The notes under the pieces: model-generated
Database searches by the model: none
Seen by the model: the letters and a program-made list of their open reading frames with translations, nothing else
What the model was told of the DNA's origin: nothing
Shown: positions 1 through 3,703 of the stretch, piece by piece
How positions within the stretch are numbered: position 1 is the first letter of the stretch
Layout of the letters: the number at the start of each line of letters is the position of its first letter
From: Escherichia phage P1
Sequence record: X15639.1
Direction: 5' to 3' (one strand)
Length of the DNA: 3,703 nt
Program-made: the position numbers and the translations under genes

Positions 1-9
1 AATAAATTT
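1..9 (+). promoter_or_regulatory. Partial C1-type operator (Op51-like), truncated by the window edge
   Basis: The window opens with AATAAATTT, which equals the 3' nine bases of the 17-bp asymmetric P1 C1 operator consensus ATTGCTCTAATAAATTT (from memory). Its position upstream of the immI promoter fits, but a 9-mer AT-rich match could be chance. Confidence 0.3.
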
Positions 10-47
10 GTATTTTTAAGTCGCGAATGCTATCTTTTCGCATCATA

Positions 48-76
48 TTGACCTTTTAATCGTTCAGGCTTATAGT
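48..76 (+). promoter_or_regulatory. Sigma70-like promoter, candidate immI promoter driving c4-icd-ant
   Basis: TTGACC at 48-53 (5/6 to TTGACA), exact 17-bp spacer, TATAGT at 71-76 (5/6 to TATAAT), with an AT-rich stretch upstream. Predicted start near 83, ahead of the a1/b1 sites and c4. Confidence 0.45.
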
Positions 77-108
77 TCCACCGTCGTAGCAAATTCTGCG
101 ACCGGTTT

Positions 109-128
109 TGACAGCCTGAATGTTAGTG
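109..128 (+). promoter_or_regulatory. Upstream antisense target sites (a1/b1-like) for the c4 RNA
   Basis: TTGACAG at 109-115 and GTTAGTG at 122-128 are exact complements of CTGTCAA (246-252) and CACTAAC (233-239) in the c4 candidate. The same two motifs recur in the same order at 276-311. Confidence 0.45.
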
Positions 129-198
129 CGGACAACCGCAGATTTCCGATATTGCGGTATTTTTGTGTCCGTAAACCGCGTTACGCCCGAATTATGGT

Positions 199-270
199 GG
201 GGCGTGATGGGGAGGCTTCGGCCTGCTGGTTTCACTAACGCCAGTCTGTCAACCCTGTCACGTCCTGCCA
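199..270 (+). ncRNA. c4: c4-like antisense RNA (immI repressor RNA) with a tRNA-like acceptor end; boundaries approximate
   Basis: GGGGCGT at 199-205 can pair with ACGTCCT at 260-266 (7 bp including G-U pairs), followed by a single base and CCA at 268-270, resembling a tRNA acceptor stem, consistent with the RNase P processing reported for P1/P7 C4. Internal hairpins: AGGC-TTCG-GCCT at 213-224, and a stem 226-229/241-244 whose loop carries b' CACTAAC (233-239). a' CTGTCAA (246-252) follows. b' with flanks (228-240) is complementary over about 12-13 bp to 304-316, covering the icd Shine-Dalgarno. Confidence 0.5.
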
Positions 271-275
271 CCTGT

Positions 276-316
276 TTGACAGCGGGTAGCAGGTTGTTAA
301 ACCTGTTAGTGAGGCC
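276..316 (+). promoter_or_regulatory. Downstream antisense target sites (a2/b2-like) overlapping the icd ribosome-binding site
   Basis: TTGACAG at 276-282 (a2) and GTTAGTGAGGCC at 305-316 (b2). b2 contains the GAGG Shine-Dalgarno (311-314) located 8 nt before the ATG at 323, so c4 pairing would occlude ribosome binding. Confidence 0.5.
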
Positions 317-322
317 GTAACT

Positions 323-565
323 ATGGTTAATGCCAATCCTTGCACACGCCCAGAATTCATCTGGCGTTTCTATTCCTGTAAAAAACACCACTATCACTTC
401 GTTATCGCAGCAACTGAAGACGAAGCACGCTCTCAATTGCCTGATGGCCCTGCATTTTTACTGCCCGTTTTTCTACTAACTCGCGCAATTCACTTAGTTA
501 CTGGAACCTCCCCTTCTCTGCCGACGTTCAGGGGGGTTTATGAAAAAACCTCTCGTCACCCGTAA
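323..565 (+). CDS. icd: Icd-like small protein (80 aa), likely translationally coupled to ant
   Basis: ATG at 323 preceded by GAGG at 8-nt spacing. The ORF ends at 565, overlapping the ant start (540) by 26 nt in a different frame. Position between c4 and ant matches P1 immI order. No recognisable domain by eye; assignment is positional. Confidence 0.5.
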   Translation: MVNANPCTRPEFIWRFYSCKKHHYHFVIAATEDEARSQLPDGPAFLLPVFLLTRAIHLVTGTSPSLPTFRGVYEKTSRHP

Positions 566-1508
566 TGAAATAGCCGAAGCGATCGCTTTGCATACTGCCT
601 GTATGCCGACACGGGAGATCCCCGGCGCAATTGCTAACTATTTCATGATAACCAGGCGTTTTTATACCCGAACAGATAAGGCTGTGATCAACAGGCTACT
701 GATAGCCGAGATCAGGGATTATTTGATTGAACAAGGACGTCTACGTTACGCAACAGTGGCAGCAGAAATAAGAAAGGAGGCACATAGAATGACCGGTAAT
801 AATTTGAATGTTGAAAAAACAGCACCTGTTACGTCAGCTACGCCAGCACCAGCCGTGAATATCATCCCCAACACCGGAGACACAATCGACAGCCAAACAT
901 TGTTGAAGATGGTCAATGAGGCACGCAAGTTATGTGGAGAACCAGAGGTTAGAAACAATAAATTCATCGAAAAAATACTCGATGAACTTGAAGGTGAATT
1001 TTACACAAAAAGTGCAAAATCCCATGGCACAAGGGCTGGGCGCTCTTTTGAGGTCATCACCATGACCTACAAACAAGCCCTGCGAGTCGCCGCGCGCGAG
1101 TCAAAAGCGGTCCGCCGTTCGCTGATCGACAAACTGGAAGAATTGCAGCAGGCAAACTCCCCTGCCCCATCGATCCCCCAAACATTACCAGAAGCTCTAC
1201 GCCTGGCTGCCGAGTTGGCAGAACAGAAAATGCAGCTGGAACAACAGCTGGTGGCCGCAGCCCCTAAAGTAGATTTTGCCGACCGGGTATCAGTGGCTAA
1301 TGGAATCCTGATCGGGAACTTTGCAAAGGTCGTTGGACTTAAGCAAAACGCCCTTTTCTCATGGTTGCGCCAGAACGGCATTCTCATGGCTTTTGGTGCG
1401 CGCAAAAACGTACCGCGCCAACAGTACATCAACGCCGGGTATTTCACGGTGAAAGAAGTGGTGCTGGATGATGAAAATGGCTACCAGATACGGCTGACGC
1501 CCAATTAA
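540..1508 (+). CDS. ant: Antirepressor Ant1 (322 aa): N-terminal extension, Rha/AntA-like domain, ANT/KilAC C-terminal domain; C-terminus looks truncated by a frameshift
   Basis: ATG at 540 preceded by a G-run (531-536). Central region (around residues 115-200) resembles Rha/AntA-type phage regulatory domains. The C-terminal 111 aa (DNA 1173-1505) align at roughly 65% identity with the C-terminus of the downstream KilA-like protein. Pro/Ala/Thr-rich linkers separate the modules. Confidence 0.85.
   Translation: MKKPLVTRNEIAEAIALHTACMPTREIPGAIANYFMITRRFYTRTDKAVINRLLIAEIRDYLIEQGRLRYATVAAEIRKEAHRMTGNNLNVEKTAPVTSATPAPAVNIIPNTGDTIDSQTLLKMVNEARKLCGEPEVRNNKFIEKILDELEGEFYTKSAKSHGTRAGRSFEVITMTYKQALRVAARESKAVRRSLIDKLEELQQANSPAPSIPQTLPEALRLAAELAEQKMQLEQQLVAAAPKVDFADRVSVANGILIGNFAKVVGLKQNALFSWLRQNGILMAFGARKNVPRQQYINAGYFTVKEVVLDDENGYQIRLTPN
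789..1508 (+). CDS. ant: Ant2, in-frame internal initiation product of ant (239 aa as encoded)
   Basis: Perfect AAGGAGG at 774-780, 8 nt upstream of an in-frame ATG at 789. The product length (about 263 aa if the C-terminal frameshift is repaired) is close to the 266-aa KilA paralog. P1 ant is known to give nested Ant1/Ant2 products. Confidence 0.5.
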   Translation: MTGNNLNVEKTAPVTSATPAPAVNIIPNTGDTIDSQTLLKMVNEARKLCGEPEVRNNKFIEKILDELEGEFYTKSAKSHGTRAGRSFEVITMTYKQALRVAARESKAVRRSLIDKLEELQQANSPAPSIPQTLPEALRLAAELAEQKMQLEQQLVAAAPKVDFADRVSVANGILIGNFAKVVGLKQNALFSWLRQNGILMAFGARKNVPRQQYINAGYFTVKEVVLDDENGYQIRLTPN

Positions 1509-1594
1509 CGGGTAAAGGCCAGCAGTGGTTAACTCGCAAGCTACTTGATGCTGGTTTGTTAAAACCAGTAGCAATAGGTTAACAAAAGAAAAAA

Positions 1595-1620
1595 ACCTGC
1601 CAGCAAACTGGCAGGTTTCT
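1595..1620 (+). terminator. Rho-independent terminator downstream of ant
   Basis: Perfect 9-bp stem ACCTGCCAG (1595-1603) / CTGGCAGGT (1608-1616) with loop CAAA, followed by TTTCT. An A-run precedes the stem. Confidence 0.6.
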
Positions 1621-1660
1621 GAGCAGATCGTCCAACCCGATCTGGATCGGGTCAGAAAAA

Positions 1661-1677
1661 TTTGCTCTAATAAATTT
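1661..1677 (+). promoter_or_regulatory. C1 repressor operator-like site (Op53-like) upstream of kilA-repL
   Basis: TTTGCTCTAATAAATTT matches the C1 operator consensus ATTGCTCTAATAAATTT at 16 of 17 positions (consensus from memory), 70 bp upstream of the kilA ATG. TTGCTC within it could serve as the -35 of an overlapping promoter, but no convincing -10 was found. Confidence 0.55.
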
Positions 1678-1695
1678 CGTTTTCTAAGTGCAAAG

Positions 1696-1719
1696 AATCA
1701 CCATTTCGAGCTGGTGATT
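1696..1719. promoter_or_regulatory. Perfect 8-bp inverted repeat with 8-bp spacer in the kilA leader
   Basis: AATCACCA (1696-1703) and TGGTGATT (1712-1719), located between the Op53-like site and the kilA Shine-Dalgarno. Could be a protein-binding palindrome or a leader RNA hairpin. Confidence 0.3.
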
Positions 1720-1746
1720 GAAGGTTGATGCAAATTTGGAGAAAAA

Positions 1747-2547
1747 ATGCAACAAACATTCAATGCGGATATGAATATATCAAACCTTCATCAAAATGTC
1801 GATCCTTCAACCACTCTGCCCGTTATTTGTGGTGTTGAAATTACGACCGACCGCGCTGGCCGTTACAACCTTAATGCTCTACACAGAGCGAGCGGACTCG
1901 GTGCCCATAAAGCGCCAGCTCAATGGCTAAGAACGCTGTCAGCTAAACAGCTCATCGAAGAGCTTGAAAAAGAAACTATGCAGAATTGCATAGTTTCGTT
2001 CGAAGGCCGTGGCGGCGGCACTTTTGCCCATGAATTGCTCGCTGTGGAGTACGCAGGCTGGATTTCTCCCGCGTTTCGGCTGAAGGTAAACCAGACATTT
2101 ATCGACTATCGAACCGGAAGATTACAACCTGCTATTCCGCAGAGTCTCCCTGAAGCTCTCCGTTTGGCTGCCGACCTGGCAGAGCAAAAGCAACGGCTGG
2201 AGCAAAAAATGCTTATGGATGCACCTAAAGTCGAATTCGCTGAACGCGTTGCTACCGCCAGCGGGGTTCTAATCGGCAACTATGCCAAAGTGCTCGGCCT
2301 GGGCCAAAACTATCTCTTCACCTGGTTGCGTGATAACGGAATTCTGATCGCAACCGGTGAACGCAGGAACGTCCCCAAACAAGAATACATATCTCGTGGG
2401 TATTTCACCCTTAAAGAAACCGTGATCGATACAAGCAATGGAAGCAGGATTTCTTTCACGACTCGTATAACCGGCAAAGGTCAGCAGTGGCTGATGAAGC
2501 GATTGCTTGATGCTGGTGTGCTGGTACCTGTCGCGGCAACGCGCTAA
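1747..2547 (+). CDS. kilA: KilA-like protein (266 aa): KilA-N DNA-binding domain plus KilA-C/ANT C-terminal domain
   Basis: GGAG at 1738-1741, 5 nt before the ATG. Residues around 25-125 carry KilA-N hallmarks (YNLNALHRASG, PAQWLR, GRGGGTFAHELLAVEYAGWISPAFRLKV). The C-terminal 137 aa (DNA 2134-2544) is paralogous to the Ant C-terminus. Architecture matches phage P1 KilA. Confidence 0.88.
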   Translation: MQQTFNADMNISNLHQNVDPSTTLPVICGVEITTDRAGRYNLNALHRASGLGAHKAPAQWLRTLSAKQLIEELEKETMQNCIVSFEGRGGGTFAHELLAVEYAGWISPAFRLKVNQTFIDYRTGRLQPAIPQSLPEALRLAADLAEQKQRLEQKMLMDAPKVEFAERVATASGVLIGNYAKVLGLGQNYLFTWLRDNGILIATGERRNVPKQEYISRGYFTLKETVIDTSNGSRISFTTRITGKGQQWLMKRLLDAGVLVPVAATR

Positions 2548-2576
2548 CAGACGTAGTAAGAACCACCAGCATTGTA

Positions 2577-3422
2577 ATGCTGGCTAAAGTCACTTTCCTG
2601 AGCTGTATAACGATGAGCGATTTTACTTTTTCTGGCTATGAATTGGCCTGCTTTGTAACACACTCCGGTCTATCCCGTAGCGCCGGGCATATCCTGTCGC
2701 AATGTGCAAATCTCGCGGCAACAACCAGTGAATACTTCATTCACAAGCCTCACCGCCTGATCGCGGCAGAAACTGGTTATAGCCAATCAACCGTCGTTCG
2801 TGCATTCCGTGAAGCTGTAAACAAAGGAATTCTGTCTGTAGAGATTGTTATCGGCGATCACCGTGAACGTCGCGCTAACCTGTACCGGTTTACACCATCC
2901 TTTTTGGCCTTCGCACAACAAGCCAAAAATGCGCTGATAGAAAGCAAATTAAAGATCTCTTCAGCGGCAACCAAGGTTAAAGCTGTTCTCGCTAAGACAT
3001 TGGCTTTATTTAATTTTTTATCCACACCCCCATGTCAAAATGATACCCCCTCCCCCTGTCAGGATGACGTGGCAATAAAGAATAAGAAGTCACAAGTTAA
3101 AAAAACAAAAAGATCAGTTTCCGGCGGTGCCGGAACAACCAGCCTCAAAAAATTGACTTCATGGATCGCTAAGGCAAAAGCAAAGGCTGACAATCTGCGG
3201 TTATCCAAAAAACGCACTCAAAAACATGAGTTCAAGCAGAAAGTAGAGGCGGCTGCGCGGAAATATGCTTACCTGAAGAACAAGCGTTCGCCTGATATTG
3301 GCGGGATATCAAACTTCGATAACCTACCGCATTGCATGACGGTAAACGAAGCTCTTAATGCGGTTTTAGCCAAAAATAAAGATAACGAACAATGGGGTAT
3401 ACCGGCAGGATTCAGAGGGTAA
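2577..3422 (+). CDS. repL: RepL-like lytic replication protein (281 aa); alternative start at 2613 (269 aa)
   Basis: Long ORF directly after kilA, as in the P1 kilA-repL operon. Winged-helix-like segment (AAETGYSQSTVVRAFREAVNKGIL) and a Lys-rich basic C-terminal tail. No clear Shine-Dalgarno before either candidate ATG. Assignment rests on context and size, not on recognised sequence motifs. Confidence 0.7.
   Translation: MLAKVTFLSCITMSDFTFSGYELACFVTHSGLSRSAGHILSQCANLAATTSEYFIHKPHRLIAAETGYSQSTVVRAFREAVNKGILSVEIVIGDHRERRANLYRFTPSFLAFAQQAKNALIESKLKISSAATKVKAVLAKTLALFNFLSTPPCQNDTPSPCQDDVAIKNKKSQVKKTKRSVSGGAGTTSLKKLTSWIAKAKAKADNLRLSKKRTQKHEFKQKVEAAARKYAYLKNKRSPDIGGISNFDNLPHCMTVNEALNAVLAKNKDNEQWGIPAGFRG
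3001..3070. other. Candidate origin (oriL-like) inside repL: AT-rich tract, perfect DnaA box, imperfect direct repeats
   Basis: AT-rich stretch at 3004-3020. TTATCCACA at 3018-3026 is a perfect DnaA-box 9-mer. Imperfect direct repeats CCCCCATGTCAAAATGAT (3027-3044) and CCCCCTGTCAGGATGAC (3052-3068). The P1 lytic origin is reported to lie within repL (from memory). Confidence 0.35.
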
Positions 3423-3424
3423 TG

Positions 3425-3441
3425 AATTGCTCTAATTATAA
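3425..3441 (+). promoter_or_regulatory. Weak C1 operator-like site just after the repL stop
   Basis: ATTGCTCTAATTATAAC: the first 11 bases match the consensus left part ATTGCTCTAAT exactly, and the right part diverges (about 12 of 17 overall). Confidence 0.25.
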
Positions 3442-3464
3442 CCATGCATACTTTCAACACCTCT

Positions 3465-3509
3465 AGTTTGCCATGAGGCAAACTCATAGGTGTCCTGGTA
3501 AGAGGACAC
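3465..3509 (+). other. Two tandem perfect stem-loops downstream of repL, possible terminator or RNA processing structure
   Basis: AGTTTGCC (3465-3472) / GGCAAACT (3477-3484) with loop ATGA; GTGTCCT (3490-3496) / AGGACAC (3503-3509) with loop GGTAAG. No U-tract follows, so not a canonical intrinsic terminator. Confidence 0.3.
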
Positions 3510-3703
3510 TGTTGCCAAAACTGGACGCCCCATTATTGCAATTAATAAACAACTAACGGACAATTCTACCTAACAATAAGTGGAGTTAACATGTTGAACC
3601 GAAGAACATTTAATGTATTCTGCGATGAATCCTGTCACCTACTAAATAATTATATAATAAGGTCATGGTATTAAATACGCTTTAATATTCCGGTCTGACT
3701 CTT

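Follow-up and report, generated by a model that had tools for sequence, protein, structure and literature searches.

Gene context and location of the lytic origin

The DNA analysed here, a stretch of 3,703 bases (the window), comes from phage P1 and carries the gene repL, inside which lies oriL, the origin of lytic replication. Positions 1-3672 match positions 48148-51819 of the P1 record AF234172 with 99.8% nucleotide identity, and positions 1578-3588 are 100% identical to X15638, which is entered as 'Phage P1 DNA for lytic replicon'. The genes and control elements follow one another in the order c4 RNA, icd, ant1, promoter P53 with the C1 operator Op53, kilA (1747-2547), repL (2577-3422) and the start of rlfA. 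The repL coding sequence, on the plus strand, was assigned from its open reading frame and from the annotation of AF234172; it contains oriL and encodes the lytic replication initiator RepL (281 amino acids), which is 100% identical to P1 RepL of X15638 and AF234172. The latter record marks the whole repL coding sequence as rep_origin ('region containing origin of lytic replication oriL') and describes RepL as initiating replication at oriL 'internal to repL'.

A first-pass annotation, made from the letters of the sequence, had proposed a lytic origin at 3001-3070 on the strength of a 17-nt AT tract, a perfect DnaA box, two imperfect direct repeats and a low-complexity peptide. All of these are present, and it is unlikely that they came together by chance, but being real is not the same as being functional. 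The location of an origin inside repL is borne out by the annotation of AF234172 and by an 88-bp functional fragment described in PMC9948254; oriL within repL is, however, already known, annotated and published, and the proposal adds nothing to that. Our analysis concerns the internal structure of the origin. In our reading, positions 3001-3070 are quite probably the left portion of oriL, and the RepL origin would be built from dyad repeats and a neighbouring A-rich element.

Published dissection of oriL mapped onto the window

Huan, Brown and Wang (Front Microbiol 2023, PMC9948254) dissected the same repL origin region, and P1 oriL as given in AF234172 and in their study has the same sequence as the window, with no difference. 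Using their Supplementary Figure 1 and primer table, we converted the published elements into window coordinates. Their AT1 (open reading frame positions 415-438; about 70% A/T and said to overlap a predicted IHF site) lies at 2991-3014, their AT2 (positions 498-540) at 3074-3116 on the plus strand, and the sites DnaA 1 and DnaA 2 at 3018-3026 and 3201-3209, respectively. The truncations correspond to about 2613-2882 (T1), 2883-3151 (T2), 3154-3422 (T3) and 2991-3151 (T4), and the primers of the shortest non-coding fragment (T5 nc-repL), given as 88 bp in the text of that paper, map to 3046-3133.

Synonymous mutation of AT1 or of DnaA box 1 (repL-D1) did not reduce RepL-driven plasmid amplification, and mutation of DnaA box 2 had no significant effect, while eleven synonymous changes in AT2 lowered amplification 6.8-10.7 fold (PMC9948254). 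Supplied in trans, T2, T4 and T5 were as active as full-length non-coding repL, and T1 and T3 were about 22-fold lower (PMC9948254). According to the primer mapping, T5 is without the AT tract, the DnaA box and the first repeat, and holds the second repeat, AT2 and a GC-rich hairpin. The published experiment has shown that 3046-3133, that is AT2 with about 30 bp to its left and 17 bp to its right, is sufficient for RepL-driven amplification in trans and that AT2 is needed; it has likewise shown that AT1, both DnaA boxes and the first repeat are dispensable in the plasmid trans assay. The authors concluded that plasmid replication mediated by RepL may do without IHF and DnaA. PMC9948254 also relays from the P1 genome paper that there is a sharp switch of GC skew towards the 3' end of repL, beside the two DnaA sites and an IHF motif.

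Set against this map, the interval proposed in the first-pass annotation is correct in part: it covers the left portion of oriL, and 25 bp of it (3046-3070) fall within the 88-bp fragment, but the required AT2 (3074-3116) lies outside.

The two repeats are palindromic and vary together across RepL lineages

The two repeats, CCCCCATGTCAAAATGAT (3027-3044) and CCCCCTGTCAGGATGAC (3052-3068), differ from each other by one indel and were located by pattern search, since general repeat finding misses copies that differ in this way. Their shared core TGTCARRATGA occurs at 3033 and 3057 and nowhere else, either in the window (0.27 expected) or in 53 kb of P1, which sets the two cores 24 bp apart. Repeat 1, taken in full (3027-3045, plus strand), consists of a C run (3027-3031) followed by the dyad TGTCA-AAA-TGATA (3033-3045). 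Repeat 2 (3046-3069, plus strand) has C runs at 3046-3050 and 3052-3056, followed by the dyad TGTCA-GGA-TGACG (3057-3069); it adjoins AT2 and lies within the 88-bp minimal fragment. Each repeat is thus a small palindrome with two inverted half-sites around a 3-nt spacer, of the general form TGTCA-N3-TGACA and in P1 of the form TGTCA-N3-TGAYR. The two dyad repeats are not described in PMC9948254; their conservation in the family and the covariation of their half-sites come from the present analysis.

Homologues of RepL fall into four lineages: P1-like proteins with at least 82% amino-acid identity; an Enterobacter and metagenome group with 46-50% identity (L003, L004, L006-L009); the phage D6 group with 27-30% identity (L011 and L095); and the L094 group with about 24-28% identity (L094, Rosenbergiella P0021 and the viral contigs L097 and L098). 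Two copies of the repeat, 24-25 bp apart, were found in all four lineages, with L008 having one copy, and the sites appear to co-evolve with the initiator in the manner of iterons. Outside P1, copy 2 reads TGTCA-AAA-TGACA in the Enterobacter group, TGTTCA-AAA-TGAACA in D6 (where copy 1 has the spacer AAT), TGCCA-AAA-TGGCA in L094 and TACGCCA-AAA-TGGCGTA in L097. Both copies within a lineage change together, to TGTC, TGTTC, TGCC or CGCC, and in every lineage the better palindrome is the copy adjoining the A-rich tract. Complementary cells make up 83% of the total for 19 sites and six half-site pairs, compared with 66% in shuffles (reached in 0 of 500) and 21-44% in slid controls, and 19 double-sided half-site changes were counted where 7.3 are expected; these values are inflated, because the sequences are related and the register and structure were chosen after viewing them.

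In L008 (1501-2328, an Enterobacter-group repL), a clean 24-nt deletion has left a single dyad repeat that is a perfect 6-bp palindrome. This natural one-repeat origin parallels the activity of the T5 fragment, which has repeat 2 only. Among 63 distinct P1-like alleles no variable site was found at 3057-3086, which is a weak test given the low overall divergence: the alleles come from a scan of viral contigs that returned only near-identical P1-like loci, and the polymorphism profile has little power.

The palindromes might alternatively work as hairpins or cruciforms, in single-stranded DNA as a priming or helicase-loading signal after melting of AT2 or in the repL mRNA as RNA structure, and not as duplex sites for RepL. 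Compensatory changes in the half-sites agree equally well with base pairing and with a dimeric protein site, both imperfect positions in P1 are G-T and wobble-compatible on the plus strand, and a separate 7-bp GC hairpin follows AT2. However, the stems are short, with 4-6 bp and a 3-nt loop in most lineages; the folding of 3020-3145 was not clearly better than that of shuffled sequences (z of -1.8 and -1.2 for the two strands), and the minimum-energy fold does not contain the individual dyads. RepL is, moreover, predicted to have a MarR-like winged-helix domain. Duplex sites and hairpins are not mutually exclusive, but we regard hairpins in place of RepL sites as unlikely.

The A-rich tract and the hairpin at the right edge

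AT2, a 43-bp A-rich tract (79% A/T), begins 5 bp past repeat 2; among the 43-mers of the window only one is less stable (z = 2.6 for AT2). Within AT2 lie the Dam site GATC (3112-3115) and, on the minus strand, the 13-mer-like motif GATCTTTTTGTTT (3103-3115). An A-rich tract of the unwinding-element type stands beside the repeats in all lineages, and AT2 is likely to be a DNA unwinding element. AGA is rarely used in E. coli. Across the 60 nt that follow repeat 2 (3074-3133 and the equivalent positions of seven other repL genes), 19 of 19 arginine codons are AGA, compared with 16 of 158 elsewhere in the same genes. This suggests that codon choice is dictated there by the DNA element, as would be expected if A-richness itself were selected.

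At the right edge of the minimal fragment lies a GC-rich palindrome, TTCCGGC-GGT-GCCGGAA (3119-3135), which can form a hairpin with a 7-bp stem. L004, L006/L009 and L007 retain the stem TTCCGG/CCGGAA, with loops and encoded peptides that differ, whereas L003 and L008 do not have it. The minus strand of the hairpin, together with the T run complementary to AT2, scores as intrinsic-terminator-like. One natural variant, L010 (1501-2328, E. coli GCA_012363615.1; 84% RepL identity), is without 12 nt of AT2, including the GATC and the 13-mer-like motif, and the C run of its repeat 1 is shortened; its origin may be decaying or altered.

The AT tract and the DnaA boxes

The left flank of the repeats is formed by a 17-nt pure A/T tract, TTTATTTAATTTTTTAT (3005-3021), which lies partly in AT1 and runs on to 3021. 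Among the 20-mer duplexes of the window, 3004-3023 ranks third from the bottom in stability (z = 2.8), and inside coding regions none is less stable. The flank is AT-rich also in the D6 (0.70) and L094 (0.77) lineages and not in the Enterobacter group (0.53), and the idea that the AT tract is an insertion found in P1 only was rejected since the D6 and L094 lineages have AT-rich left flanks too. A role of the tract as an internal promoter was also dropped, as no sigma-70-like promoter was found inside repL. The IHF consensus (at most one mismatch) had no match at the AT tract or at AT1 (2991-3014), where the literature places an IHF site. A site with one mismatch to it, AGTCAATTTTTTG, lies on the minus strand at 3146-3158, a short way to the right of the hairpin; in the window IHF-like matches are at chance frequency (5 found, 4.5 expected).

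DnaA box 1, TTATCCACA (3018-3026, plus strand), is identical to DnaA 1 of PMC9948254, has the perfect consensus and is the only exact match in the window and in P1 coordinates 1-53319. DnaA box 2, TTATCCAAA (3201-3209, plus strand), came from the sequence scan and has one mismatch. Boxes with at most one mismatch number three in the window, where 0.77 are expected and 7 of 200 shuffles reach three. No cluster of the kind seen in oriC-like origins is formed, the exact box and the one-mismatch box being 183 bp apart. Box 1 is kept in nearly all of the 63 P1-like alleles, and the E. coli variant L010 has TTATCCCCA in its place. No DnaA box with at most one mismatch was found in or near the repL origin region of the Enterobacter-group, D6 and L094 lineages, where the only match is a one-mismatch site at the 3' end of L095. 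When codons are aligned, the Enterobacter group has no counterpart of the TTATCC of the box, and the sequence of the D6 group is unrelated at that place. As judged from these comparisons, the P1 lineage alone has the DnaA box.

The origin core might nevertheless be the AT tract with the perfect DnaA box, and DnaA together with RepL might open the tract, as at oriC or P1 oriR. A perfect 9-mer, single in 53 kb of P1, is unlikely to arise by chance; it adjoins the least stable 20-mer of repL, is retained in the P1-like alleles and is followed by a second near-consensus box, and the authors of PMC9948254 allow a role for DnaA in the phage context. What speaks against this explanation is that AT1, box 1 and box 2 could be destroyed by synonymous changes without loss, that the 88-bp fragment is fully active without them (PMC9948254), and that no such box was found in or near the origin region of the other three lineages, while L010 has its variant sequence there. 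We hold it to be slightly less probable still than hairpins in place of RepL sites. Two of the features on which the first-pass annotation had built its origin, the AT tract and the DnaA box, do not appear to be the working parts; and where conservation at the DNA level had been named there as a check, it is found for the direct repeats across the RepL family and, for the DnaA box, in the P1 lineage only.

Conservation as DNA within the codons of a predicted disordered linker

The stretch 3001-3070 encodes S-T-P-P-C-Q-N-D-T-P-S-P-C-Q-D-D (STPPCQNDTPSPCQDD), which corresponds to RepL residues 149-164. The AlphaFold model, built with 16 homologues, predicts a folded winged-helix-like domain at residues 12-145 (predicted local distance difference test score, pLDDT, 80-90), a disordered segment at residues 148-188 (pLDDT below 50), encoded by 3018-3140, and then a long helix at residues 190-236. 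The first-pass annotation had placed the low-complexity segment between a helix-turn-helix region and a basic tail; in the model it lies between the winged-helix-like domain and the long helix. Since the origin region codes for a predicted disordered linker, the cis element sits where the protein tolerates almost any sequence. The precomputed family label of RepL is PF26868 (Phage_P1_RepL); our own searches of Pfam-A (E up to 0.01), NCBIfam (hits above cutoff) and PDB sequences gave no match. RepL did not group with the Rep_3 or RepA-type (WH1-WH2) initiators, as the model has one winged-helix-like domain, the disordered linker and the long helix, and homology to lambda O was not found, with no Pfam hit. 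For residues 12-145, Foldseek placed winged-helix regulators of the MarR type at the top (E about 1e-3, probability about 1.0). MarR-type regulators generally bind such dyads as dimers.

The two repeats and the A-rich tract, and usually GATC too, are kept at the nucleotide level across the RepL lineages. Between P1 and the homologues with 46-50% identity, the identity at third codon positions rises from a mean of about 0.37 to 0.6-0.8 over approximately 3027-3128. The best local nucleotide alignment of P1 with repL of the D6 clade covers exactly 3014/3026-3116, with scores of 38-50 compared with at most 34-36 in 200 codon shuffles. Both copies in P1 are read in codon phase 0, as PPCQND and SPCQDD; the copies in D6 and L095 are read in phases 1 and 2, as PLFKLN and PHVQNE, and those in L094 in different phases from each other (PPMPNV and PPPCQNG). 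As the same DNA motif is found in other codon phases in D6 and L094, protein-level selection is not the cause of the repeat. Synonymous sites, codon phases, the alignment of P1 with D6 and the AGA bias all indicate selection on the cis element as DNA beyond the needs of the protein, and, by these sequence comparisons, we were able to show that it is the DNA of the repeats and of the A-rich tract that is conserved, independently of the reading frame.

It is very improbable that the repeats are a peptide repeat only (TPPCQND / TPSPCQDD) in a low-complexity linker, with AT2 alone as the origin and the likeness of the DNA as a by-product of protein conservation: the repeats are indeed in frame in the P1 and Enterobacter lineages, which share the conserved peptide PPCQN-x-PSPCQ, the trans assay does not need repeat 1 and no mutation of repeat 2 has been published (PMC9948254), but the D6 clade carries the motif in two other codon phases with unrelated peptides and the L094 copies also differ in phase, synonymous sites are conserved, the repeat and A-rich segment is the only significant nucleotide similarity between P1 and D6, and half-site covariation is not predicted by a peptide repeat.

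A second island of synonymous conservation was observed at 2877-2906, where third-position identity between P1 and L003 is 0.9 over the ANLYRFTP codons (CTGTACCGGTTTACACC). This island lies outside the active fragments T4 and T5 and is accordingly not needed for amplification in trans.

Other features of the window

Promoter P53 (PkilA), which drives kilA-repL, lies at 1643-1677 and the C1 operator Op53 within it at 1661-1677, both on the plus strand; these positions were transferred from the annotation of AF234172 and X15638 with a record-to-window offset of 48149. At 1495-1510 the window has one C fewer than AF234172 in a C run (GACG-CCCAAT), and the Ant1 frame (540-1508) stops in consequence at 1508 rather than at about 1585. 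An old sequencing error seems more likely here than a biological difference, the extent 1-3672 matching the old GenBank record X15639. The final 55 or so bases (3650-3703) differ from AF234172, mainly by G-to-A and C-to-T changes plus indels, and the megablast match ends at 3672; they are probably the poor-quality end of the source record. Rfam returned the C4 antisense RNA (RF01695, 68.8 bits), as expected for P1 immI, and the a1/b1 target element of the same region (RF03163, 51 bits), in the entries for window positions 70-122 and 190-275.

A model for the RepL origin

From left to right, the origin would consist of the AT flank with the DnaA box (3005-3026), the repeats (3027-3045 and 3046-3069), AT2 with its GATC (3074-3116) and the hairpin (3119-3135). 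RepL, expressed from the C1-repressed promoter P53, may bind the dyad repeats as dimers via its MarR-like winged-helix N-terminal domain, as the predicted fold and the dyad symmetry suggest. Once bound, it would destabilise or open the A-rich tract beside the dyads, where the host replicative helicase might then be loaded for theta replication. The left AT tract and the DnaA box would be at most accessory, in the P1 lineage.

That the C run and the TGTCA-N3-TGACA dyads are the recognition sites of RepL is a proposal from sequence comparison to which we give an even chance. The origins of the RepL family would then share one design, with one or two palindromic sites, an A-rich tract and often GATC placed in the codons of a disordered linker, and with a specificity that co-evolves by lineage (TGTCA/TGACA, TGTTCA/TGAACA, TGCCA/TGGCA, ACGCCA/TGGCGT).

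Several points weigh against the model of dyad repeats and A-rich element. The host-factor steps, such as helicase loading, draw on general knowledge of theta origins and not on data from P1. The dyads of P1 itself are imperfect, each with four standard pairs and one G-T, the covariation values carry the inflation described above, and the fold matches of RepL are weak over the whole model, with template modelling (TM) scores of 0.2-0.4. In the published work, the C/G-rich sequence 5' of AT2 was not studied, RepL could not be purified and the place where it binds was not shown (PMC9948254). The assay reads over-replication of plasmids that already have pSC101 or RK2 origins, not phage replication, and the authors caution that the DnaA and IHF sites might matter in the phage (PMC9948254).

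The origin and initiator of the P1 lytic replicon are widely used, in P1 and P1-derived artificial chromosome (PAC) vectors, in phagemids and as inducible amplifiers of copy number, and RepL serves as a typing marker for P1-like phage-plasmids with resistance genes. What our work adds is a sharper map, in which the parts conserved as DNA (dyad repeats, A-rich tract, GATC) are distinguished from the DnaA box specific to the P1 lineage. The dyads give a concrete hypothesis for the RepL binding site; the dyad-repeat pattern across the family is a modest new lead and not a discovery. Natural orthogonal pairs of origin and initiator are suggested for P1, D6, the Enterobacter group and the L094 group. 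If the dyads are the RepL sites and the family shares the proposed design, RepL replicons would be an independent parallel to ori-lambda, and orthogonal RepL-origin pairs might be used for engineering of copy number.

Comparison with known replication origins

With oriC-type origins P1 oriL shares one perfect DnaA box, an AT-rich tract, a 13-mer-like GATCTnTTnnTTT element and a GATC site. It differs from them in being without a cluster of DnaA boxes, in the lack of effect of mutations in its boxes (PMC9948254) and in having the phage-encoded RepL as initiator.

The iteron-containing theta origins of plasmids (P1 oriR with RepA, pSC101, R6K and F) are similar to oriL in their direct repeats next to an AT-rich element, in the nearby DnaA box and in a predicted winged-helix domain of the initiator. 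In contrast to these, oriL has two repeats only, of which one is enough and which are palindromic, its DnaA box is dispensable and not conserved, RepL is not a Rep_3 protein, and the origin is located inside the gene rather than beside it.

The iterons of phage lambda are themselves dyad-symmetric, and a palindrome follows the lambda AT-rich tract. In ori-lambda, located in the middle of gene O, iterons stand beside an AT-rich tract, the two iterons next to the tract suffice, and the length of the protein varies with how many iterons there are (PMC7466680). P1 oriL is alike in having two repeats beside an A-rich tract within the linker-coding segment of the initiator gene, and in the natural one-repeat variant L008 RepL is shorter by 8 residues. 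The two systems differ in the number of sites, four to six iterons in lambda and two in P1, in the absence of a P-like helicase loader gene beside repL in the window, and in that RepL and O have no detectable homology, with binding of RepL to the repeats being a deduction in P1. By analogy, ori-lambda is the closest functional parallel to the origin of the P1 lytic replicon, in a likeness of design and not of family membership.

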